DNA of 64,000 nucleotides, taken from the IMG/VR virus record IMGVR_UViG_3300028048_000060, positions 32,001 through 96,000 of that record, one strand, 5' to 3'. The stretch comes from a virus (lineage: Duplodnaviria > Caudoviricetes). Below are positions 484 through 58,820 of this stretch, in pieces (positions within the stretch are counted from its first letter, which is position 1; every line of letters starts with the position of its first letter). Position numbers and translations under genes: made by a program. A model generated the notes under the pieces. That model was not told the origin of the DNA. It searched no databases and saw nothing but the letters and a program-made list of their open reading frames with translations.

Positions 484-3400
484 ATGCAAACAATTCCATT
501 TAACTTTGATGACCTTTATTCCAATGCTAAAGAACTTTTAAAGCAAACAGGGTTTGATGTAAATGAAGGGTCTAATACATCTCAGTTGTGTGCTATCATG
601 GCATACATAGCATCCTGTTTGAATTCTAATACATCTTTTAATATAAACGAGACTTTATTGCCTTTTGCTACTAAGAGAAAGAATATTTTACAAGATGCAA
701 GGGTCTTAGGATACGAACCAGTCCATAAACTGAGTTACATCTACACAGCAGAAATTACTCTTAGTGATAAGTTCATTGGCTTTGGAACTTTAACCATTCC
801 TAAACTGAGCTATATCACAGCTAATGGATTAAAATACTACCTTTGGGATTACACTAAGGATGTAGTAGTCAACCTTGGAAGCATAGTAGTTGATGATAAT
901 ACTTTAAATCCTGATTTAATTTCAACAAAACAGAATGAACTCAAAGTCTTAGACTTTAATGATATAGACTCTTATAGTACATTTTATTATTTCTCAAACA
1001 ATGTTCCTGTTCTTCAGATTCCTAAGGCTAAGTTGAAGAGTGCATGGAATTTAGCTAAAAATTCCTTTGAAAAGACCTTTTCTCTTAGAGTTACTGAAGG
1101 AAATGTATTTAAGTATTATAGCGATGAAAATGAAAATGCTCTTAAAAGAACACTAAGAACAGTTCAGGAAGGAGAGAACACTGTTGTTTATCAGTACATC
1201 GATATCCCTTATACTGATATCGAAGATAATGGTATCCAGTGCTTTGTAGATTATTATGATGAAGAAGGAAATCTGAATAATGATGTTCCTTTTACAAGAA
1301 CAGAAGACTACTTCTTTGAAGATGATGGGAACAGTGTCCTTAGTAATCATTTTCTAAGATTAGATGATATTGAAATGAATACTCCAAGAGTATACTTCCA
1401 GTATGCAGGAATGGGAAAAGGATTACCTTCTGATTCTGTTGTGAAGTTTAATGTCTTAGAGTCTTCAGGTTCTAATGGAAGTGCAAATGGAGCAAAAGGA
1501 ACTTTAACTGGGCCTGAGGGAGAAGTCTTAGGAGACACCAGGAACTGGAGAAGTGATGTCTTAGCAGAGTCTTCTATAACTATGTCCTTAGAAAGAACAG
1601 GAAGAGACTCAGAATCTAATGAAAGTATAAAAGCATCTGCATCTAGAACATTTAATAGTGCTAGAAGACTTATTACTAACTTAGACTTTCAAAGTGCTTG
1701 TAATAGACATCCAGGAGTCGAAGAAAGTTCTGTTTGGGGAGGAGAAGACGAGTTTCCGAGAGCCCCAGGCCATGTTTGGTTCAGTTTACTTAAACCAAAT
1801 GACTCAGGTTTCTTAGAGTCAAACTCAGGAGACTGTTATATCAGAGAGAACACTGAACTTCCAGTTAGTGAAGTAGATTTCTTTAATGATTATGAAACAA
1901 GAAAAGAATATTACTCTAAGAATTATCTTACAAGCGATTTTGTGAATAATGATGTTTTAAAGAGTCTTAAAAATAAATTTGTCCCTGGAATTACATTCCA
2001 TCACAGACAACCTTTATTTTTAGATTTCTATTATAAGATTAAACTCTTAAAGTATGACATGAGACAGGACGAAAAGTCTTTTCATTCTTTGATGTTTAAA
2101 GTCTTAGATAACTGTTTTAGAGGAAATGACTTAACTTTAGAGAAGTTCAATACAGAATACTTTAATTCTAATATCATAAAGAGACTGGATTATGCTATCT
2201 CAGATAAGTGTGGTTTTGAGAGTTCATTGGAAACTAAGTTAGTCTTAAATGAAAGGACCTTAGTAACTGAGAACTGGGACAGAAGATACAAGGATATCTA
2301 TGTTCCTTTGTGTGTTCCATTTGAGACCTATTTTGATAGTTTTGGATTCTTAGACTATACAAGACTCCCTAACATCGACACAGAGAACTTTGTTAAGTTT
2401 AGTTTTGAGACTGTTGTCAAGAATAAGACTAAGACTTTTGACTTATTGAAGGGGGACTTATTCACAGACTGGTCTTATATTCAGGAAGACCAGGACATTA
2501 GACGAGAAGTGATGAAGAGGTCTACTACATCTGTAAGTTACTCAGATTCTAATACAAGAATGTTCATGGCTCCAGTTAAAGTAAGAATGAAGTACACCTA
2601 TAAGATTAATTCCAGTGTTGACAAGTTAAAGTTAGGATTTATGTTAAGTCCTGACAATACTAAAGACCAAAGTTTTAATAACATTCAAGTCTTAGTCTTT
2701 AAGAACAAAAGAACAGTTAATGGAGTAACTAAGAAGTTTGATGGATACAGTAATAACTTAACTGCTAATTATGACTTACTGAAGAACATTTATGCTAATT
2801 CTAAGATTAAAAACTTAGATTCTTATATAAGAACATCAGATTCTGAGTTTATTTCTGTTATTGAACCAATTGTAAGTTCTTTTAATCAACAGATAGACAA
2901 CAACGAAGAACCATTCTCAGACAATTTCTTCTATGAACAGGATTCTAGAAATATTCTAAGACTGAGAACTGACTTAGTTGAATTTAATGAAGGAGATATT
3001 GTAGAAGTTAGATTTGAACGAACCTGTGGTTATTACTATCTGTTTAATGGAAACGAAAAGAAAATCTTAGTCCATCTGTTTGTTAATGGAGATTATGAAG
3101 GATTTAAGGTCTCAGGTTCAGGAATGACCTACAATGACGAGTATGATATTCTTCCTAAGGAAGTCTATGAAGCATGGAAAACTCATGAAGCAGACATCCA
3201 GGATGACACTATGTTCAATGATATCACTTTCAGTGACCCAAGGTCTTACTTAGTTACTGGTGACAGAAAATACATGGTGACTATAGAGCCAACTGGGACT
3301 GAGATGGAAACAGAACCGCATTATATGGCTTATAATGCAGATGGAACTATAACTGAAGTTTCAAGACTTATCAGAGAACTTTTGAAACAGGGCCAGACAT

Positions 3401-3744
3401 TTGACCAAATTTTTGAGGAACATCCTGAATACTTACAAGAATTAGAAGAATTAGAAACCCAGATTCCTGAAGGAAGAGATGATGAGTCTAATGAAAAGGT
3501 TTCATTCGGTCATTACTTAACAACAGAAGGTTACTTAGCTGATGATGACGAAGACATTTACAGTGGTCCAAAGGTAAGAGAATATAATGAAGCAATGTAT
3601 CTCTACAGTCCTTTAACAACTGATATGTTCAAAAGAAATGTTCTTCTTAATATAAAATACAATAGTTTAAACTTTAAACTTAGACAGAATGTCATTCCAA
3701 GACTTAGAAAGGTTGAGTTTATAAATGGAACTTCTGAATACTAA
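484..3744 (+). CDS. Baseplate wedge subunit, T4 gp6-like (long form)
   Basis: FD....EGSN, NET.L..A..R.NI...A..LGY and ES.ESIK...R.IT..D...WGGE motifs. Confidence 0.85.
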   Translation: MQTIPFNFDDLYSNAKELLKQTGFDVNEGSNTSQLCAIMAYIASCLNSNTSFNINETLLPFATKRKNILQDARVLGYEPVHKLSYIYTAEITLSDKFIGFGTLTIPKLSYITANGLKYYLWDYTKDVVVNLGSIVVDDNTLNPDLISTKQNELKVLDFNDIDSYSTFYYFSNNVPVLQIPKAKLKSAWNLAKNSFEKTFSLRVTEGNVFKYYSDENENALKRTLRTVQEGENTVVYQYIDIPYTDIEDNGIQCFVDYYDEEGNLNNDVPFTRTEDYFFEDDGNSVLSNHFLRLDDIEMNTPRVYFQYAGMGKGLPSDSVVKFNVLESSGSNGSANGAKGTLTGPEGEVLGDTRNWRSDVLAESSITMSLERTGRDSESNESIKASASRTFNSARRLITNLDFQSACNRHPGVEESSVWGGEDEFPRAPGHVWFSLLKPNDSGFLESNSGDCYIRENTELPVSEVDFFNDYETRKEYYSKNYLTSDFVNNDVLKSLKNKFVPGITFHHRQPLFLDFYYKIKLLKYDMRQDEKSFHSLMFKVLDNCFRGNDLTLEKFNTEYFNSNIIKRLDYAISDKCGFESSLETKLVLNERTLVTENWDRRYKDIYVPLCVPFETYFDSFGFLDYTRLPNIDTENFVKFSFETVVKNKTKTFDLLKGDLFTDWSYIQEDQDIRREVMKRSTTSVSYSDSNTRMFMAPVKVRMKYTYKINSSVDKLKLGFMLSPDNTKDQSFNNIQVLVFKNKRTVNGVTKKFDGYSNNLTANYDLLKNIYANSKIKNLDSYIRTSDSEFISVIEPIVSSFNQQIDNNEEPFSDNFFYEQDSRNILRLRTDLVEFNEGDIVEVRFERTCGYYYLFNGNEKKILVHLFVNGDYEGFKVSGSGMTYNDEYDILPKEVYEAWKTHEADIQDDTMFNDITFSDPRSYLVTGDRKYMVTIEPTGTEMETEPHYMAYNADGTITEVSRLIRELLKQGQTFDQIFEEHPEYLQELEELETQIPEGRDDESNEKVSFGHYLTTEGYLADDDEDIYSGPKVREYNEAMYLYSPLTTDMFKRNVLLNIKYNSLNFKLRQNVIPRLRKVEFINGTSEY

Positions 3745-49630: not shown

Positions 49631-50419
49631 ATGAGACAAAGAACAATTAAACACTCAGTAAGACTTTCAGGAATAGGTCTCCATACTGGAGAAATTATCC
49701 ATGTCTTACTCAAACCTTCAAAGGCACCAGGGATTTCCTTTAACAACATCAAAGTGAGTCCTGACACTGTCTTTGGAACATCATTATGCACCAAAATTGG
49801 GCAAGTAAGGACTATTGAGCACTTAATGTGTGCATTGTCTATTCTTAATATAACAAACTTAGATATTATCTTAGATGGAGACGAAATCCCTATCTTAGAT
49901 GGTGGAGCATTTGTGTTTGTTGAGATGCTCAAGGATAATGTCTTGGACTTAGATGGTTTCATCAAAGATTTCTTTATTCCAAATGAAGGAATAGAAGTTA
50001 TAGATGAAAATGACTCTGAAAAGTATATCAGAGCATATCCATCAGGAAAATTAAGCATTAACCTTAAAGTAGATTTTAATGGATTAAAACAACAGTTCTT
50101 TTATAATAAAGACATAAGCACATCTTTAGAATTCCTAAGAGCAAGGACGTTCTGTTATCTTAGAGATGTTGAGGAGATGCAGAAGAATGGAATGGCACTG
50201 GGTGGAAACTTAAATAACTCCATTGTCTTAGATAATGATAATAATCCTATAAACCACTTTCTGTTTGACAATGAGTTAGCTAAACACAAGATGATAGACT
50301 TTATAGGGGACTTAAGTGCTTTAGGATTTCCTGTTATAGGAAGAATAGAGTGTTCTAAACCTGGGCATACTATAAACAATTTGTTTGTTAAGAAATTAAA
50401 GGAAAAGTTAAATGTTTAA
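49631..50419 (+). CDS. lpxC: UDP-3-O-acyl-GlcNAc deacetylase
   Basis: QRT...GIGLHTG, TIEHLM, EIPILDG, ARTF, HKMIDFIGDL, GH..N; sigma70 promoter upstream. Confidence 0.92.
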   Translation: MRQRTIKHSVRLSGIGLHTGEIIHVLLKPSKAPGISFNNIKVSPDTVFGTSLCTKIGQVRTIEHLMCALSILNITNLDIILDGDEIPILDGGAFVFVEMLKDNVLDLDGFIKDFFIPNEGIEVIDENDSEKYIRAYPSGKLSINLKVDFNGLKQQFFYNKDISTSLEFLRARTFCYLRDVEEMQKNGMALGGNLNNSIVLDNDNNPINHFLFDNELAKHKMIDFIGDLSALGFPVIGRIECSKPGHTINNLFVKKLKEKLNV

Positions 50420-50801
50420 TGCTTTTAAAAAGATACTGAACTTAGAAGACTTAACCCAAGAGGACTTAGACAAGATAAGTCCATTCCTGATGTTAAGATG
50501 GCTAGAGGGAAATCCAGGATGCTTACAGATAGCACAGTTCCTGAATGTATATAACAAAATCCCTTTAGAAGCACAAATAGAGTTTATAAAGTCTATTACT
50601 CAAGGAAGGATTAAGTACATTAAGTTTATAAAAGGAAACAAGATAGAGTCTAAAGAACTTGATCTTATATCAAAATACTTTAAAATATCTTTAGACAAAG
50701 CACTTTTATACTCTGAGTTTCTTTCTAAGGAAGACATAAAGAGTATTGAGTCACAGTTAGATTCATTAGAGCCAGGCCAAAAAATTAAGAGAGGAAAGTG
50801 A
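50412..50801 (+). CDS. Clamp loader small subunit, gp62-like
   Basis: SPF...RWL, YIK..K, I.KYF..S..KA..Y. Confidence 0.7.
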   Translation: MFNAFKKILNLEDLTQEDLDKISPFLMLRWLEGNPGCLQIAQFLNVYNKIPLEAQIEFIKSITQGRIKYIKFIKGNKIESKELDLISKYFKISLDKALLYSEFLSKEDIKSIESQLDSLEPGQKIKRGK

Positions 50802-51700
50802 TGATTGTTTTTACACATAATGACTTAGATGCGGTTGGATGTGAATTATGTCTTAGACACAGTAACTTAAAGATAGACAAAGTGTTCTATGAAGACTACG
50901 TTACAATGAAGGACACTGTTCGAGATATTATCACATACGGGGCTAAGAACAACATAGACACTGTGTTCATTTGTGACTTGAGTTTCTCAGAGAGACCTGA
51001 GTTGCTCCAAAATCTTCTAAACCACTTTAAGACTGTCATTCACTTAGACCACCACTCATATCCTGAGGACTTTAGTGTCAAAGTAAGAGATAACTGCATC
51101 TTAAAACAAATTATAGACCCTTCAAGATGTGGATGTAAGATTGTCTATGATGTTCTGAAACTGAATATTCCTTATCTTAATGCTGTTATTGAAGTAATAG
51201 ATAAGTTTGACCGATTTGTCACTGACAGTCCTTTATTTGAAAAATCAGTAAGTATGAACTCTTACTTTTGGAAGTATGGCTATCAGCATTTCTTAGAACA
51301 GTTTAAAGAAAAAATTCCAGTTTCTTATAATAAAGACATAGAAATATTAAATGAAGAGACTTTAAGAGAACTTGAAGAACAAACTAAGAAAGGACAGATT
51401 TTAAAATCAGACAAAGTGACTATCAAGTTTGGAGATATCCACTTTGTAGAAGCAGAAATAAATGCTTTTAATCAAGGGCAAAGAGGGTTTCTGTGTATTA
51501 CTCCAGGAAACATCAAGGTAAGACTCAACAACAAGATATTCTCTCAGGAAGAGGCAGAGAATCTTAGACTTAAAATTTTGGGTTCAGTTAATGGCCACCC
51601 TCATGCATTTGTAGATGTCTTTAAGAATGATAATCCTGAACTTACCTTTGGTGAAATCCAAAGAATTTGTAATATCATTAACTCTTATGAAGGACTTTAA
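50798..51700 (+). CDS. DHH-family phosphoesterase
   Basis: TH.DLD, ICDL, LDHH motifs. Confidence 0.85.
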   Translation: MMIVFTHNDLDAVGCELCLRHSNLKIDKVFYEDYVTMKDTVRDIITYGAKNNIDTVFICDLSFSERPELLQNLLNHFKTVIHLDHHSYPEDFSVKVRDNCILKQIIDPSRCGCKIVYDVLKLNIPYLNAVIEVIDKFDRFVTDSPLFEKSVSMNSYFWKYGYQHFLEQFKEKIPVSYNKDIEILNEETLRELEEQTKKGQILKSDKVTIKFGDIHFVEAEINAFNQGQRGFLCITPGNIKVRLNNKIFSQEEAENLRLKILGSVNGHPHAFVDVFKNDNPELTFGEIQRICNIINSYEGL

Positions 51701-51959: not shown

Positions 51960-52061
51960 GAGACTTGAAATTTTGGATGTTTTATATTATAATAAATAAA
52001 ATGTTAAGAATGCTTTAGTCACAGAAGACTAAAGCATTTGAATTTTTAAGGAATATCAAAA

Positions 52062-53771
52062 TTGAAAGAAATATACAAAAAGAAAACATCAAGAGAACAT
52101 ATCTTAGAAAGACCAAATATGTATATTGGTGCTTCTAATGTAGTGGAAGTAGAAGATTATTGCTTAGTTAATGACAAGATTCAGAGAACTTCAGTTAAGT
52201 GTGTTCCAGGACTTTTAAAGATTATCAACGAGATTATAGACAACTCAGTTGACATTGCTATTAAGACTAACTTTGAAGGATGTAACTCAGTAAGTGTTAA
52301 AATCACAGATGATACTGTTGTTGTAGAAGACAATGGTCCAGGAATTCCAGTTTCTAAAAATCCTGAAGGAGAGTATATCCCATTTGTTTGTTGGGGATAT
52401 GCAATGTCAGGTTCTAACTTTGACAATGACGAGAACAGAACTCACTTAGGGATGAATGGTGTAGGAAGTTACTGTACGAATGTTTGGAGTACAGAATTTA
52501 CTGGTATTTCAGATGACTCTAAGAACAGATACACTGTTAAGTTTAAAAATAATGCTTTAGATTATAAGGAAACTGTTTCAGACTCAGTCTCTAAGGGCGT
52601 TACTGTTAAGTTTAAACCTGACCTTAAGCGCTTTGGAATTGAAAAGATAGACCAAACTCACAAAGACTTAGTCTATCAGAGACTGTTAAATCTCAGTATT
52701 AGCTTCCCTCTAATCCAGTTTAAGTTTAATAACAAAGCTATTAAGACTAAGAACTTTAAGTCTTATGTTAGCAGTTTTGCTGATGAAGGAAGTTTTGAGG
52801 TCTTTCAGAGTGATAATTTTAGCTTTGCTGTTATTCCAAGTCCTTCAGACGAGTTCCAACAGTTTAGTTATCTAAATGGTCTTAATATCAAAGATGGTGG
52901 AACTCACATTGATGTGATAGCCAACAACATTGTTAGTTTACTGAGAGACAGTCTTTCTAAGAAGTACAAGACTATTAAACCTGCTGATATTAAGAACAAG
53001 CTGATGGTAGTTGGTGTGTTTAAGAACTTTGCTAATCCTAAGTTCAACTCTCAGACCAAGGAAAAGCTGACTAACTCTGTTTCAGAAGTAAATCGGTACT
53101 TTGGTGATATCGACTATCAGAGTCTTTCAAAGAAAATTTTAAAGAACTCTAATATAATTAGTCCTATCATAGAAGTCTTTAAGATAAAGGAAGAACTTAA
53201 AAACAGACAGGAATTAAAGACTCTTAATAAAGCAAAGAAAATCAAAGACGAGCATTACTTACCTGCTTTAAAGGAAAGTAAATACATAATGGTCGTTGAG
53301 GGACTTTGCTTAGATGAAAATACTGAAGTTCTTACATCTGATTTTAGAAGCAAACAAATAAGAGACATAGACATTGGTGATACAATCATAGATTCTAACT
53401 TTAATCCAGTAACAGTTCTCAGTAAATCACACAAACTCACTAAGACACTTAGAGTAAATTTTAGAGATGGATATGTTATTTGTGGATTAGAGCATCCATT
53501 CTTTGTATATAATAAAGAAAGAAAAATATTTGAGTATGTTAAGGCTAAAGACTTAAATTCAAATTATTCTCTTGTTAGGTCTAAGATTAGAAATGATGCT
53601 AGATTCTCAGAAGTGCTTGATGTAGAAGAAAAACGTTTGTTTCTTGAAGAAACTTATGTAGATTTTACAGATGATGATTTCTTTTGTGTTATTAGAGACG
53701 GAAGAATTCAAAGAGTTAAAGGAACTGAGATAGTTAAAGGAGACTGTTTGATTTTACAATGTGTGAGTTAA
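52062..53771 (+). CDS. Topoisomerase II large subunit (gp39) N-terminal part fused to split intein N-fragment
   Basis: EHIL.RP.MYIG, EIIDNS.D, DNGPGIP, SGSNF, G.NGVG, F.SQTKE, VVEGL then CLDENTEV. Confidence 0.93.
   Translation: MKEIYKKKTSREHILERPNMYIGASNVVEVEDYCLVNDKIQRTSVKCVPGLLKIINEIIDNSVDIAIKTNFEGCNSVSVKITDDTVVVEDNGPGIPVSKNPEGEYIPFVCWGYAMSGSNFDNDENRTHLGMNGVGSYCTNVWSTEFTGISDDSKNRYTVKFKNNALDYKETVSDSVSKGVTVKFKPDLKRFGIEKIDQTHKDLVYQRLLNLSISFPLIQFKFNNKAIKTKNFKSYVSSFADEGSFEVFQSDNFSFAVIPSPSDEFQQFSYLNGLNIKDGGTHIDVIANNIVSLLRDSLSKKYKTIKPADIKNKLMVVGVFKNFANPKFNSQTKEKLTNSVSEVNRYFGDIDYQSLSKKILKNSNIISPIIEVFKIKEELKNRQELKTLNKAKKIKDEHYLPALKESKYIMVVEGLCLDENTEVLTSDFRSKQIRDIDIGDTIIDSNFNPVTVLSKSHKLTKTLRVNFRDGYVICGLEHPFFVYNKERKIFEYVKAKDLNSNYSLVRSKIRNDARFSEVLDVEEKRLFLEETYVDFTDDDFFCVIRDGRIQRVKGTEIVKGDCLILQCVS
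53307..53771 (+). other. Split intein N-fragment (154 aa)
   Basis: Block A CLDENTEV, I.DI..GD, block B CGLEHPF, VKAKDL. Confidence 0.9.
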
Positions 53772-55051
53772 AGATATTTGTAGGAGTCTTAACAGATGAA
53801 CTTCTAAAGAAATTCACCACTTTTCCAAAGGCCAGTTTGTTCTATCCATTCAAAGAACTTACTGGAATGAAGTGTAAAGACTGGTGTTTAGAAAGATTAC
53901 GAGACTTAGAGACTCCTAAATGTGCTTGGTGTGGGAAGATTGTTAAATTTGATACTGAGTATTGTATTGAAGAGAGAAATTTGTTTGTCATTGTTAAATT
54001 TATAGAGGAGCATATTTGCTTTGATACTAAGAACTGTCCAAGAAAAGGTCTTAATCCAAACTCAGTTGAATTTGTTTCAAAGGCTTATAATATAAGCGAA
54101 GAAGAAGCTAACAGAAGAATCTTAGAACGAAATAAATCTCCATTTTATAGGACAAATTATGCCTCAGATGAAGAATATAGTAATGCGCAAAAACGAAATG
54201 AACAATGGTATATAAACCAGTACGAAGATGGAAAGGAAAGATTTATCAAGAGAAACAAAGCCATTTCTGAAAGAGTTACAAAGGAAGGGATGATAAGAAT
54301 ATACGGAAAGGAAAAGGCAGAAGCGATTTGTAAAAGTAAAGCAACGTGTTGTAAAGAACACTTTATGAAAAAGTTTGGCGATTCTTGGAAAGAAGAATAT
54401 GAGAAACATCTTCGAAAAGTAGAACAAACAGAGGAATCATTTATTGCGCGATACGGTCCCGAACTTGGAAAAATAAAGTGGGAAGGCCATATAAAATTAG
54501 TGAAACAAATTCTGAAGAAAAGACTCGAAAATGAAACCTCTGAACAGAGAAGAAAACGATGTTGCTTTTCAAAGGAGTTCTTTAAAACAAGATATGGAAA
54601 TAATTGGAAAACCTACTATAAAGAATTTCAGAAGAAGATACAAGTAAAGGCAGGAAAAGCATCAAAACTTTCTTTAAAATATTTTAAACCTATTATTGAT
54701 TTTCTCGATAAGAATCATTTAAAATATTATATAGGTGTAGATGGAAATAAGGAGTATTTCCTTTGGGATAGGAAAGCTAAGAAACTTCGATTATATGACC
54801 TTTGTATCTTAGATATAAAGACTATAATTGAATTTCATGGCTCTCTATATCATTATAACAAAGATAACCTTTTAGAAAATCCTTTTGGTTTTTCATTAAA
54901 TGAAAGAAAAGAAAAAGACGAACAAAAGGAAAGATTAGCGAAAGCAAATGGATTTGACTACTACGTTATATTTGACACAGATGATAGGACAGAGATGGCT
55001 GAAAAGTTAATCAAAATAATTCAGGAAAAAATAAATGCAAGAACTAACTAA
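53759..55051 (+). CDS. Vsr/DUF559-like homing endonuclease inserted between intein halves
   Basis: YG...G..K repeats; YD...IIEFHG..YH...KD..K..LA..NG.....I. Confidence 0.8.
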   Translation: MCELKIFVGVLTDELLKKFTTFPKASLFYPFKELTGMKCKDWCLERLRDLETPKCAWCGKIVKFDTEYCIEERNLFVIVKFIEEHICFDTKNCPRKGLNPNSVEFVSKAYNISEEEANRRILERNKSPFYRTNYASDEEYSNAQKRNEQWYINQYEDGKERFIKRNKAISERVTKEGMIRIYGKEKAEAICKSKATCCKEHFMKKFGDSWKEEYEKHLRKVEQTEESFIARYGPELGKIKWEGHIKLVKQILKKRLENETSEQRRKRCCFSKEFFKTRYGNNWKTYYKEFQKKIQVKAGKASKLSLKYFKPIIDFLDKNHLKYYIGVDGNKEYFLWDRKAKKLRLYDLCILDIKTIIEFHGSLYHYNKDNLLENPFGFSLNERKEKDEQKERLAKANGFDYYVIFDTDDRTEMAEKLIKIIQEKINARTN

Positions 55052-55466
55052 AGAACAGGAACTTAATTTTGAATTAGTTGATATAGAGTCAGTTGAAGAT
55101 AATGGATATGCTAACACTTTTGATATCTCTGTAACTGGGAAACATGATTTTATCTTAGGAAATGGAATTATCACACATAATTCTGCTCTTGCAGGGTTAA
55201 CACCTTCTCTAGGAAGAGAACAGTGTGCATATTATTGTCTAAGAGGAAAACCACTGAACGTTTGGAATGCGTCTCAGTCAAAGTTCACTTCTAATAAAGA
55301 ATTAAGTACTTTATATAAAATTGTAAAGAGTCTTGAAGAAGAAGAACCTATGGAAGATGGTGATTTCTATAAAATTGAAGTTAATGGAAAAGAAATGATT
55401 GTAAATGAAAATGACGAGATTAAGGTAGATGGGAAGTGGGTGAGTGTTAAGGAGTTTATTGGTTGA
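55035..55466 (+). CDS. Split intein C-fragment (49 aa, ends HN) fused to topoisomerase II TOPRIM middle part
   Basis: TFDISV...H.FIL.NGIITHN|SALAG...LRGKPLNV...N.EL. Confidence 0.92.
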   Translation: MQELTKEQELNFELVDIESVEDNGYANTFDISVTGKHDFILGNGIITHNSALAGLTPSLGREQCAYYCLRGKPLNVWNASQSKFTSNKELSTLYKIVKSLEEEEPMEDGDFYKIEVNGKEMIVNENDEIKVDGKWVSVKEFIG

Positions 55467-56410
55467 TTCATTTTGTTTACAGACTAACATATTTGGGAGA
55501 GACGAGTCCCAAATATTATATAGGGAAGCACTCTGGTGATATTGGTGATTTAGGGACAAAATATTTCACAAGTTCAAAGATTGTTAGGGAAATGTTTAAA
55601 AAAGACCCTAAATCCTTTAAGACTAAAATCATAAAGGTGTTTGACACTTGCACTCAGGCACTCGCATTCGAAAGTAAGATTTTAAGAAGAGTGGATGCTT
55701 GCAGAAATAAACTATTTTTTAATCAGTCTAATTATTCATATTATACTAAAGACAGAACATCTTTAGTTACTGTCTTTGACAATATTCTCCAGTGTAAGAG
55801 GTCTATTCCATGTGATGAATTTTATGCGAATAGAGAACGATATATCTCTGACCATGATGGACTTACAATTTTTAAAGACTCAGATGGAAATATAATCAGG
55901 TGTAGTAAAAGCTTCGCTTCTGAACATAATCTTGTTGGAGTTAATAAAGGTGTTGTCTTTGCTTTGAATGACTCAGGTAAGTATGTTAGACTTACACAGG
56001 ATGAATACCACAGTAATAAAGATAAATTTAAAGTTGGCACAACAGGAAATGTGATTTGTAAAGATAAGGTTACGGGAGAAACAAAAAGAGTCTCAAAGGA
56101 AGAATTTGACTCTAACCCAAACCTTAAAGGTGTTTATGACAAATACCAGTTTAAAATTTGCCCTCTATGTAACAAACAGATTTCAGTCCAAAATTATGAC
56201 AGGCACATAAACAGACATAAAACACTGATTTTATGGGTAACTGATGGAAAAGATACTTGGAAATGTACTGAAGAAAAATATTTATTGAAATATAAAGACA
56301 AATTTAATATAATTCAAAAGAATAAGGATAATACCATTGGATACATAGATGGCAAACCTTATAACATCAGATTCGTTGGAAGAATTAGAAAAAATTTTTA
56401 TTTGGAGTAA
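55463..56410 (+). CDS. GIY-YIG-like free-standing homing endonuclease
   Basis: FVY...YYIG.H, YFTSS, E..IL, FFN; repeated C-terminal modules and C2H2-like CPLC...H...H. Confidence 0.75.
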   Translation: MIHFVYRLTYLGETSPKYYIGKHSGDIGDLGTKYFTSSKIVREMFKKDPKSFKTKIIKVFDTCTQALAFESKILRRVDACRNKLFFNQSNYSYYTKDRTSLVTVFDNILQCKRSIPCDEFYANRERYISDHDGLTIFKDSDGNIIRCSKSFASEHNLVGVNKGVVFALNDSGKYVRLTQDEYHSNKDKFKVGTTGNVICKDKVTGETKRVSKEEFDSNPNLKGVYDKYQFKICPLCNKQISVQNYDRHINRHKTLILWVTDGKDTWKCTEEKYLLKYKDKFNIIQKNKDNTIGYIDGKPYNIRFVGRIRKNFYLE

Positions 56411-56413
56411 GAT

Positions 56414-56964
56414 ATGAAAGAATTTAAGAAGGTCAAGTTAACCAAAGAACAATTAAAGGAATACAGAGAAAATCCTAATATCAGAAGACGTAAAATTCTC
56501 ACAGGAGGTTTTGAGAAGATTGTCTATGCCTCCGACCAGGACTTAGACTAGCCCTTTGGGGCTAGTATATTTTTTAAGGAAAATTAGACGGATTCCACAT
56601 TCGCGCATTGCTCTCAGGATTTATTAACAAATACTTACCTGAGTACAAGGAAAGAACTGGGATGCTTGAAACCCCTATCATAGGATTTTTAAAGGCGCAA
56701 AAGCTTCAGAGATGGAGTTATGACTTAGATGATGAGTCTAAGACTAAACCTGGAGAAGTTCCATTCTATTACAAGGGATTAGGTTCCTGGGAGAAAGAAG
56801 ACCTCAAGAAGGTTGTAAAGACAGATGGTTTAGAAAAGATGATTAAGATGCTTGATTTTAATTCTGAAGATGCATATAATTCATTAGAAGAGTGGTTGGG
56901 AGATGACTCTGAACCGCGAAAGAAACATATCTTAGAAAACGACTTTAACATCGCTGATGTATAA
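56414..56964 (+). CDS. Topoisomerase II small subunit (gp60-like), read via 41-nt translational bypass (56549-56589); predicted 169 aa
   Basis: ORF1 ends ASDQDLD-TAG; resuming after matched GAC gives GFHIRALL...YYKGLGSW...RK. Confidence 0.85.
56547..56589 (+). promoter_or_regulatory. Bypass signals: take-off hairpin, stop codon, SD-like AAGGA, landing GAC
   Basis: ACTAGCCC-TTTG-GGGCTAGT; TTAGAC repeated at 56543 and 56584. Confidence 0.85.
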
Positions 56965-56973
56965 GGAACACTA

Positions 56974-57480
56974 GTGAGAAAATTCACAGAACAAGAAAGG
57001 GAGAAGTTAAAATCCCTTATATCTAACTATATAGAGTTAAGAAATTTGTCTTTTGGAGAAAATCATAGTCAGGCTATTACACAGGGTCACCAAAAAGCAA
57101 AGGCTATCAAAGACCTTTTAAGTAAAAACAACATAGATCCATCCTGGATGGGAATGATAAAGAAAAACTCAAATGAAGATGAAATTATCTCCAAACTGTT
57201 CGAAGATCATCCAGAAGTCAAAAGTGATAAAAATAAAGAAATATGTCTTCTCTATATAAAGATAAAGAAAATGAGTAAAGACGTTGATGCGAGAAAAGAG
57301 AAGACTAAGAGTTCTATCTTAAAGAAAATAGCTAAAATCGACCCTATGCTATCAGCTTATGTTTTGTATAAAGTTAAGATTTTCCAAGCACGTAAAATAC
57401 TGGAAAAGAGTCTAATGAATGAAACATTAGACTCATTAGAACAGAGATACAAAGAGATTTTAAAGGATTTTGATTTATGA
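56974..57480 (+). CDS. Hypothetical basic helical protein
   Basis: ORF between gp60-like and gp52-like genes. Confidence 0.65.
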   Translation: MRKFTEQEREKLKSLISNYIELRNLSFGENHSQAITQGHQKAKAIKDLLSKNNIDPSWMGMIKKNSNEDEIISKLFEDHPEVKSDKNKEICLLYIKIKKMSKDVDARKEKTKSSILKKIAKIDPMLSAYVLYKVKIFQARKILEKSLMNETLDSLEQRYKEILKDFDL

Positions 57481-58820
57481 CAGATTCGGTTAAGATTGAA
57501 GAATTTTTAAATACAAGATTGTCTAATTATGCTAGCTATGATAATCTTAGAAAGATTGGAAGTTACATTGATGGACTTAAAAATGCTAGTAGAAAAGTTC
57601 TTTATACTATCCATGAGAAGAACATCAAAGACACAGAAAAGGTCTCGAGATTAGCTTCTAAGTGTTCTGAGTTCTCTGATTATCTCCATGGAGATGGGTT
57701 ATGGAGAGTTATAGTTACTCTAGGACAGGACTTTGCAGGGACCAATAACATTCCTTTGATTCAGAAGTTTGGTGCATTTGGATGTCGTTCAAACAACGAA
57801 CCTGGTGCCCCAAGATACATCCATGCTTCAGGTTCTAAGATGTTCTTTAGTCTGTTTAATTATAAAGATGATGATATTTTAGTAAAACAGACATTTGAAG
57901 GAACTACTATAGAACCAAGATTCTATGTTCCTACTATCCCTATTATCTTAGTTAATGGGAGTGAAGGAGTTTCTTCTGGATTTGCTCAGAAAATCTTAGC
58001 GAGAAATCCTAAGAATATCATTAAGTACATTCAGAACTTCCTTAATAAAAAGCCTACTAGAAAAGACTGGTTAAATCCATTTTATAATGGATATAATGGC
58101 GACATTATCAGAGACCCTAACTTCCCTGACGACCCAAAGAAATGGTTAGTAAATGGAAAGGTAGAAAAGGTTAAGTCTAATGTATACAGAATTAAAGAAA
58201 TTCCATTTACTTATGATTTAAACTCCTACCTGAAAGTCTTAGATTCCTTGGAAGAGTCAAAGACAATTTTGAGTTATTCAGATATGTCAGATGGAGACTG
58301 TAAGTTAGAGTTTGAAGTAAAGGTTCCAAAGGATTTTAAACACGAAGATGTTTTAAAGACGTTAAAGTTACAAAAGCCTATTACTGAGAACTATACTTGT
58401 ATAGATGAAAATAACAAAATCAGGATTTTCGAAGACTCAGAAGAAATAATCAAGTCTTTTATAGATATAAAGCTAAAATTTATTCAAAAGAGAAAAGAGT
58501 TTCTGGAAAAAACCCTTCAGGGTGAATTAGACATTTTGAACTCTAAGATTTTGTTTATTACTATGGTTATAGATAAGAAACTAAAGATAAACAATATCCC
58601 TAAAGAACAGGTTATTGAAGCATTAAGCAAAGTAAAGAAAATTGTAAAAGTCCAAGACAGTTATGATTATCTTTTAAAGATGCCTATCTATTCTCTGACA
58701 AAAGAGAAAGTTGAAGACTTAAAGAATCAGGCATTATCAAAGAGTTCAGAACTTGAGGAATTAAAGGAAATGTCTAAAGAGCAAATATGGTTAAAAGATT
58801 TAGAGGAGATAAAGTTGTAA
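57477..58820 (+). CDS. Topoisomerase II medium subunit, gp52-like
   Basis: DGLK...RK, YLHG, G.FG.R, APRYI catalytic Tyr, P.ILVNG.EG...GF. Confidence 0.95.
   Translation: MTDSVKIEEFLNTRLSNYASYDNLRKIGSYIDGLKNASRKVLYTIHEKNIKDTEKVSRLASKCSEFSDYLHGDGLWRVIVTLGQDFAGTNNIPLIQKFGAFGCRSNNEPGAPRYIHASGSKMFFSLFNYKDDDILVKQTFEGTTIEPRFYVPTIPIILVNGSEGVSSGFAQKILARNPKNIIKYIQNFLNKKPTRKDWLNPFYNGYNGDIIRDPNFPDDPKKWLVNGKVEKVKSNVYRIKEIPFTYDLNSYLKVLDSLEESKTILSYSDMSDGDCKLEFEVKVPKDFKHEDVLKTLKLQKPITENYTCIDENNKIRIFEDSEEIIKSFIDIKLKFIQKRKEFLEKTLQGELDILNSKILFITMVIDKKLKINNIPKEQVIEALSKVKKIVKVQDSYDYLLKMPIYSLTKEKVEDLKNQALSKSSELEELKEMSKEQIWLKDLEEIKL

Follow-up and report, generated by a model that had tools for sequence, protein, structure and literature searches.

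For a long time, gene 60 of phage T4 was, to our knowledge, the only known case of a coding gap that ribosomes bypass in a programmed way. There, the topoisomerase large-subunit gene is split into the arrangement gene 39-mobA-gene 60, with C- and N-terminal tails at the split, and gene 60 combines a stop codon directly after the take-off codon, a hairpin with the core UAGCC-UUYG-GGCUA, matched take-off and landing codons, and a Shine-Dalgarno (SD)-like triplet 6 nucleotides (nt) before the landing codon. All of these features recur at positions 52062 to 56964 of the DNA analyzed here, a stretch of 64,000 nt (the window) from the virus record IMGVR_UViG_3300028048_000060; positions below are those of the window, and all of its features that we describe lie on the + strand. 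The same host gene is split at the same position, but the matched codons are GAC (Asp45) instead of GGA (Gly46), the gap measures 41 instead of 50 nt, the loop reads UUUG instead of UUCG, a GIY-YIG gene takes the place of the gene for the HNH endonuclease MobA, and an extra split intein lies upstream. With a probability of roughly 0.85, we read the locus as a single gene for a topoisomerase II large subunit (T4 gp39 plus gp60 type) of an uncultured T4-like phage of the bovine rumen, invaded by independent selfish elements and rescued by three mechanisms.

Two other described systems resemble parts of this locus. Fractured genes (Dassa et al. 2009, PMC2677866) contain a split intein whose halves are separated by a free-standing gene for a Vsr-like endonuclease, for example in the gp41-1 loci. 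The 3′ end of that endonuclease gene overlaps the start of the open reading frame (ORF) that carries the C-terminal intein half by 6 to 69 bp in the fractured genes and by 17 nt here. Topoisomerase is not among the eight host enzymes of Dassa et al. (PMC2677866), and an N-terminal intein half of 154 amino acids (aa) with an extra tail is a feature of the locus described here. In Aeromonas phage Aeh1 (PMC3045599), the gene for NrdA is split by the homing endonuclease MobE, and tails that derive from the element are proposed to bring the enzyme back together, as here, but the host gene is a different one and there is neither bypass nor intein.

The initial annotation of this DNA had treated the locus as new, which it is not. 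Manning and Atkins (2022, bioRxiv 10.1101/2022.08.31.505936) surveyed genomic and metagenomic sequences for cassettes of the gene 60 type, and their Table S2 lists the same contig as “MGS5” in clade 9. It is contig Ga0256405_10000342 from bovine rumen (Lethbridge), identical to IMGVR_UViG_3300028048_000060. The MGS5 sequences of ORF1, ORF2, and the endonuclease and the 40-nt bypass string (Table S2, Files S2 and S6) agree with the window letter for letter. The entries for MGS5 already give a GIY-YIG enzyme in place of MobA, the VSR/Hint split of ORF1, the GAC codons, and the UUUG loop with an extra C-G pair. Because both the contig and its architecture are in the 2022 preprint, for which the library searched gave no later journal version, the value of our analysis is confirmation and population detail, not discovery. 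We add an uninterrupted (empty-site) allele at 94% nt identity, which places all insertions to the base, and a tract flanking the intein site that is recoded over about 30 bp in either direction. Also added are the boundaries of presence and absence of the GIY-YIG segment (1011 nt versus 57 nt), ratios of nonsynonymous to synonymous substitution rates (dN/dS), fold-level checks of both nucleases, and relatives that have the intein cassette and lack the bypass.

One topoisomerase gene in pieces

The reading of the locus as one gene is carried by a comparison with L031, a Logan contig at 94 to 95% nt identity (protein cluster of 86 members) that has one uninterrupted gene of 605 codons. If positions 53307 to 55181, 55332 to 56509 (6 nt in L031), and 56549 to 56589 are left out of the window, the remainder gives an ungapped match of 1815 nt to L031. 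The match has 108 nt mismatches and 16 differing residues out of 605 (dN/dS of 0.07), and its identity per 60 nt stays at 92 to 100% except near the intein site.

Five forward ORFs fill 52062 to 56964: ORF1a, an ORF of 430 aa, ORF1b, an ORF of 315 aa, and an ORF of 45 codons, which is followed by the landing GAC and the C-terminal part. ORF1a (52062 to 53771, start TTG at 52062) consists of a 415-aa N-extein and the 154-aa N-terminal intein half (IntN). The N-extein (52062 to 53306) contains the GHKL ATPase and the GyrB transducer of a topoisomerase II large subunit (Pfam HATPase_c and DNA_gyraseB), is collinear with L031, and ends with VVEGL inside the Toprim motif EGxSA. ORF1b (55035 to 55466) consists of the 49-aa C-terminal intein half (IntC) and 94 aa in all after it, beginning with the +1 Ser (55182). 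The first 50 of these (SALAGL...KIVKS, 55182 to 55331) form the middle extein, which is the first half of Toprim, matches phrog_543 at positions 446 to 498, and is collinear with L031. The other 44 aa (55332 to 55466 with the stop; ..VNEND.., alignment A4) form a C-terminal extension (CTE) that has no counterpart in L003 or L031 and is conserved among split alleles and absent from uninterrupted ones.

ORF2 begins with 45 codons that end in ASDQDLD and are followed by UAG (56414 to 56548). The first 32 aa (56414 to 56509) are the unique part of an N-terminal extension (NTE), presumably a nascent-peptide signal and a docking tail of ORF2, and align to the N-terminus of T4 gp60. They are followed by FEKIVYASDQDLD (56510 to 56548; read from the sequence, collinear with L031 at 92%), the segment with the Toprim motif DxDxD, whose last codon is the take-off GAC (56546 to 56548). 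The C-terminal part (GFHIRALL..., 124 aa plus stop, 56590 to 56964) is the equivalent of the C-terminal region of T4 gp60. Because the family profile phrog_7229 spans the NTE ORF at positions 4 to 47 (E of 5e−4) and the C-terminal part at positions 47 to 170 (E of 8e−20), the two parts meet at one residue of a single profile. The C-terminal part has diverged so far that tblastn does not connect it to T4; among cultured phages, Vibrio and Campylobacter myoviruses are nearest, and megablast of the region gave no match among GenBank phages.

The anatomy is thus confirmed throughout 52062 to 56964. All five coding pieces described in the initial annotation (N-terminal part with IntN, endonuclease, IntC with middle part, endonuclease, and bypass-dependent C-terminal part, over about 4.9 kb) are present. 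The same annotation placed both interruptions in catalytic TOPRIM motifs, which holds for the intein inside EGxSA and for the 41-nt gap after DQDLD but not for the gene split with the GIY-YIG gene in it, which falls within a linker of low conservation, 13 codons upstream of DxD. It also counted two recoding mechanisms, but protein splicing is not one. Its proposal that an active enzyme would require trans-splicing, a ribosomal hop, and noncovalent reassembly is what all of the sequence hallmarks, the purifying selection, and the single copy point to, and we retain it in that sense.

The intein site lies exactly within EGxSA (EGL|SA). IntN (53307 to 53771, 154 aa plus stop) starts with CLDENTEV, with Cys1 encoded by TGC at 53307, and IntC (55035 to 55181) ends with GIITHN. 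Residues 35 to 122 of IntN match positions 38 to 115 of Pfam Intein_splicing and residues 9 to 49 of IntC match positions 115 to 155, so that the halves abut at 115. The scores of 21.2 and 27.1 bits are below the gathering cut-off of 35.8, each half covering part of the model. Among PDB entries, IntN best matches the split intein gp41-1 (6QAZ), with block B ..GLEH of IntN aligned to ..SEEH of gp41-1. The intein is a genuinely split one, since 33 stops interrupt the frame of ORF1a between 53772 and 55034; its halves are on separate ORFs, and the endonuclease ORF overlaps both in another frame. Cys1, the block B His, the terminal HN, and the +1 Ser are all retained, and ..GIITHN|S at 55181/55182 is kept in five relatives. 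Excision gives the junction VVEGL+SALAGL, which aligns without gaps to IVEGLSALNG of L031. We infer that the products of ORF1a and ORF1b are trans-spliced: IntN and IntC, translated separately, would associate and splice their exteins into a product of 509 aa. In comparison with L031, 26 mismatches fall within 30 bp on either side of the intein site versus about 5% elsewhere, and 6 of the 16 residue changes cluster around it. Such a recoded tract would be expected from import together with donor flanks or from recoding of the target site.

The last part of IntN (53676 to 53771, about 32 aa, ..DDFFxVIRDG..) extends beyond the Pfam model, and IntN as a whole is about 50 aa longer than typical N-terminal halves of split inteins. 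This tail is conserved in L007, L027, and L029 and also present in distant relatives sampled from rumen, brine, and elsewhere, and it is therefore not junk. As a candidate, a decayed IntC (blocks F and G) was rejected: BLASTP gave no significant similarity and Pfam gave no intein match in the tail.

The 430-aa ORF between the intein halves (53759 to 55051) overlaps IntN by 13 nt and IntC by the 17 nt mentioned above. The protein has no match in Pfam, and searches of PDB with the single sequence of either nuclease returned chance matches only. A profile of 18 sequences has E. coli Vsr as its three best matches in PDB (E of about 0.16, over the catalytic core), and the motif IIEFHG...H...FDTD aligns with that core. 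The best Foldseek matches of an AlphaFold model of the protein (predicted local distance difference test [pLDDT] value of 85) are 1VSR, 1CW0, and the I-Bth0305I domain 3R3P, all to its C-terminal domain (template modeling [TM] score of 0.52 to 0.65 by target, probability of 1.0, E of 0.004 to 0.04). The AlphaFold models of both nucleases were built on alignments of 17 to 18 homologs. We assign the protein, on its predicted fold, as a Vsr-like (EDxHD-type) free-standing homing endonuclease of the kind present in fractured genes. The dN/dS of its gene is 0.15 in comparison with L009 and L010, and the gene is broken in L010.

Gene split and coding gap

The GIY-YIG gene (55463 to 56410, 315 aa) has a TTG start that overlaps the stop of ORF1b (GTTGA). 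The Pfam scores of its product are 24.6 bits for SegE_GIY-YIG (cut-off of 25) and 17.4 bits for GIY-YIG (cut-off of 22.6), and the invariant residues Y19-x-G21, E70, and N87 fit the GIY-YIG motif. The family profile returned nothing relevant from PDB. In Foldseek, the three best matches of the N-terminal domain of the AlphaFold model are the I-TevI catalytic domain (TM score of 0.63 to 0.66 by target, E of 0.08 to 0.15). At the level of the predicted fold, the protein is probably a Seg/I-TevI-type GIY-YIG enzyme. The predicted catalytic folds of the two nucleases pair at top ranks with those of I-Bth0305I/Vsr-like (EDxHD) enzymes (PMC3239194) and of I-TevI/Seg. Their DNA-binding regions are unrelated to the solved ones.

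In the relatives L009 and L010 (92 to 93% identical), 57 nt stand in place of the 1011 nt at 55460 to 56470, and the first 19 NTE codons differ. The GIY-YIG gene is present at 93 to 94% identity in three other sequencing runs. We propose that a MobA-type splitting cassette would have cut the topoisomerase gene 13 codons before DxDxD, adding the 44-aa C-terminal and the 32-aa N-terminal tail, and that the GIY-YIG gene would occupy the slot of the HNH endonuclease MobA in that cassette. The spliced product of ORF1 and the product of ORF2 would then associate noncovalently, perhaps via the CTE and NTE tails. A complex prediction of the middle extein with CTE (A4) versus NTE (A5) scored 0.34, with 0.02 for the best of 3 controls, a weak result that we use neither way. 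Its runs agreed on at least 52% of contacts, with a partner pLDDT of at least 59. Of 80 solved complexes, 58 attained the mark set for such predictions, and so did 2 of 110 mismatched pairs; at scores of at most 0.60, only 7 of the 80 solved complexes attained it, along with both of the passing mismatches.

The 3′ end of the GIY-YIG gene contains a promoter-like site (TTGAAA, 17 nt, TATAAT; 56285 to 56313), which precedes the start of ORF2 by about 100 nt and belongs to the 1011-nt segment missing in L009 and L010. The site is a consensus match only (11 of 12 positions), and it fits the idea that an invading element may bring expression signals for the downstream gene.

The 41-nt coding gap (56549 to 56589) directly follows DQDLD. 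It begins with UAG (56549 to 56551), which is part of a take-off hairpin with a stem of 8 bp and a UUUG loop (56547 to 56566), continues with an AU-rich stretch and an SD-like AAGGA (56576 to 56580), and ends with the landing GAC (56587 to 56589), 6 nt after AAGGA and followed by GGA. The predicted folding energy of the hairpin is −14.6 kcal/mol, compared to −14.7 kcal/mol for T4. The script that finds bypass sites recovers the annotated 50-nt gap of T4 (read from AF158101). Because two stops of the downstream frame lie inside the gap, and because the length of the gap differs by one base between close strains (see below), triplet reading and simple frameshifting are excluded.

These features are shared by nine relatives, all of which have identical take-off and landing codons (GAC/GAC), a stop directly after take-off, a hairpin of −13.8 to −15.8 kcal/mol, and an SD-like element 5 to 6 nt before the landing codon. 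Their gaps measure 37 to 45 nt and occur in all three phases modulo 3 (0, 1, and 2). Four of the relatives have UGA in place of UAG, with UAG..CUA changed to UGA..UCA, a double compensatory change in two stem pairs, although the sample is small (nine sequences, two stem types). Between two strains at 93% identity, the gap is 41 versus 40 nt long and the downstream part has a dN/dS of 0.02. Exactly from the landing codon onward, amino acids are conserved amid synonymous changes (DGFHIR/DGIHIR). In an alignment with the N-terminus of gp60 (A6), NTE is 30% identical; a Tyr (T4 Y16), an Arg (T4 R24), and DxDxD are invariant, and among the relatives K2, Y17, R25, and other NTE residues are invariant. 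DNA-pattern scans of viral and metagenome contigs gave, apart from GC-rich chance matches (L015, L016, L020, and L021), only a handful of further cassettes, a number that does not suffice for a formal covariation statistic. L001 was out of place in the MAFFT alignment A2, which was therefore not used for pair counts.

We infer that ribosomes bypass the gap to give one polypeptide. Peptidyl-tRNA(Asp) would take off from GAC beside the hairpin-embedded UAG, and the ribosome would slide over 41 nt, helped by AAGGA, and re-pair at the landing GAC, which would give ...DQDLD-GFHIRALL... The natural variants (Asp codons, shorter gap, another loop, another endonuclease) show the essential features of bypass and offer ready-made test constructs.

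Insertions and selection among relatives

The elements of the locus are found singly and in several combinations. L031 and L003 are uninterrupted. The full architecture is present in contigs of three other sequencing runs (L023 to L025). L009 and L010 have the intein/Vsr cassette, the split, and the bypass and lack the GIY-YIG gene, with the Vsr-like gene broken in L010. L001 lacks the intein and has a frameshifted GIY-YIG gene and the bypass. L002, L014, L019, and L022 have the split and bypass only, and the 2-kb contig L017 shows NTE and bypass only. L006 to L008 have the intein/Vsr cassette and the split, with a contiguous ORF2, and L027 to L030 have the intein/Vsr cassette only. The 41-nt gap is absent from L031, L003, and L007.

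Because relatives carry the elements singly, the elements are independent and adjacent, not nested. We count at least three separable insertions and a separately mobile GIY-YIG layer. The comparison of related phages that the initial annotation had called for therefore shows cassettes that vary independently, and its picture of a nested invasion by two cassettes has to be given up. The further claim that each cassette shields its own target has indirect support at the intein site only, with its heavily recoded flanks of about 30 bp relative to the empty allele; the flanks of the second insertion have no such signature in comparison with L031.

Selection on the extein pieces is purifying. In comparison with L009 and L010 (92 to 93% nt identity), dN/dS of the exteins is 0.02 to 0.10, with 0.04 for the N-extein and 0.02 to 0.03 for the C-terminal part, and the extein pieces have neither indels nor stops. 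Of the intein halves, IntC has a dN/dS of 0.04 and IntN one of about 0.2. The 154.7-kb record (about 68% complete) contains one GyrB-domain gene and one gp60-like part, with no second copy of either. An intact second copy together with relaxed selection had been named as what would speak against a working split gene; the record contains no such copy, and selection is not relaxed.

The uninterrupted allele, the allele with intein and split and without the GIY-YIG gene, and the fully loaded allele coexist at 92 to 95% nt identity. On this basis we tentatively suggest, at somewhat less than even odds, that the interruptions may be live, independently segregating drive elements and not fossils. 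Both nucleases would cut the uninterrupted allele during coinfection, with marker exclusion as the result, and the recoding around the intein site would record an import from a diverged donor. If this is true, the locus is a natural system in which homing, trans-splicing, and bypass efficiency could be measured together, and the GAC/UUUG/41-nt bypass variant becomes available for mechanistic work. More generally, the locus shows how far selfish DNA can fragment one essential gene that is apparently still working, with three predicted rescue mechanisms acting on one polypeptide.

L027, a relative from a brine metagenome with the same topoisomerase intein/Vsr cassette, also has a DNA ligase gene accompanied by a faint match to inteins (452 to 1384 of that contig).

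Alternative readings and neighboring features

Translation might stop at the UAG at 56549 without any hop, and the C-terminal part might be made separately, through re-initiation or from an internal start such as TTG 56608, for a total of four polypeptides. The SD-like AAGGA before the landing region and the in-frame TTG 56608 would suit this scheme, and split topoisomerase subunits can assemble noncovalently, as T4 gp39/gp60 do. However, the conservation described above starts 7 codons before that TTG, and identical take-off and landing codons in all nine relatives speak against it as well. Separate initiation would also part DxDxD from GxHI, which are one contiguous motif in uninterrupted alleles, and NTE and the hairpin have homologs in T4 gene 60, for which bypass is annotated. 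We regard initiation without a hop as unlikely. Still less probable is that the 41 nt are removed or neutralized at the level of nucleic acid (by a tiny intron or by editing) or that the hairpin is mainly a terminator or attenuator. The hairpin and its T-run do form the top terminator-like site of the region. Contigs of two RNA libraries from one study (X1 and X2), however, bridge the site with the gap retained (56506 to 56657 and 56506 to 56807), Rfam gave no family between 51900 and 57600, intron families included, and the T-run is not conserved in L001, L014, and L017, in which the hairpin, SD-like element, and matched codons are kept.

The same holds for the idea of a decaying, nonfunctional topoisomerase gene wrecked by mobile elements, which we consider strongly disfavored. 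The gene has three interruptions, the Vsr-like gene of L010 is broken, and the GIY-YIG gene of L001 is frameshifted, but the low dN/dS of the exteins (also versus the intact allele), their freedom from indels and stops, the catalytic residues kept in the intein, the single copy in the record, and the recurrence of the architecture in several independent samples all oppose decay. That the split or the frame break is an error of assembly or sequencing is hardly credible, despite runs of G and T in the gap whose length differs between contigs. The same architecture occurs in IMG/VR, JGI, and several independent Logan assemblies, the in-frame stop, hairpin, and landing codon are conserved, and an architecture that recurs in independent runs is therefore not an assembly artifact.

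Several points nevertheless weigh against a functional gene rescued by splicing, bypass, and reassembly. The record is about 68% complete, which leaves some room for a second copy. In this intein family, block B has Gly where Thr is usual, and IntN is unusually long at 154 aa; splicing competence is therefore assumed. The sequence-only support for both nucleases lies under curated cut-offs, and the Foldseek E-values are weak (0.004 for Vsr-like, 0.08 for GIY-YIG) though the top-ranking matches are consistent. Some of the RNA-library contigs may stem from carried-over DNA, and rare forms are lost in contigs. The take-off hairpin with its T-run also fits the terminator pattern, and that a bypass variant with GAC codons, a UUUG loop, and 41 nt would work is assumed from its sequence.

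In X1 and X2, zero cover at 55496 to 56415 reflects a strain without the GIY-YIG gene and not silence, and the depth in these contigs is left uninterpreted. Within the 5′ part of the Vsr-like gene (53840 to 54391), many contigs of both runs stack, with a summed contig word-depth of 34,000 to 64,000 versus about 1,700 in the flanking extein (20 to 40×). Candidate causes are strain variants, a repeat, or an abundant RNA.

Downstream of the locus, and outside the finding, lies the gene for the partner protein, a gp52-like topoisomerase II medium subunit (57477 to 58820; Pfam DNA_topoisoIV, E of 2e−75). Between the gp60-like part and gp52 is a variable slot (56974 to 57480) with an ORF of 168 aa that has no family match. 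In L031 the slot (3122 to 3607) holds a 161-aa ORF without nucleotide similarity, and the version in L010 is 36% identical. Directly upstream of the start of ORF1a, a 13-bp hairpin with a T-run (52008 to 52039) lies downstream of a promoter-like site (51965 to 51993). Further upstream, in a block of replication genes and just before a DHH-family gene (50798 to 51700), the phage carries a gene for LpxC (UDP-3-O-acyl-GlcNAc deacetylase; 49631 to 50419, 262 aa), which matches PF03331 over the full model (E of 2e−63).

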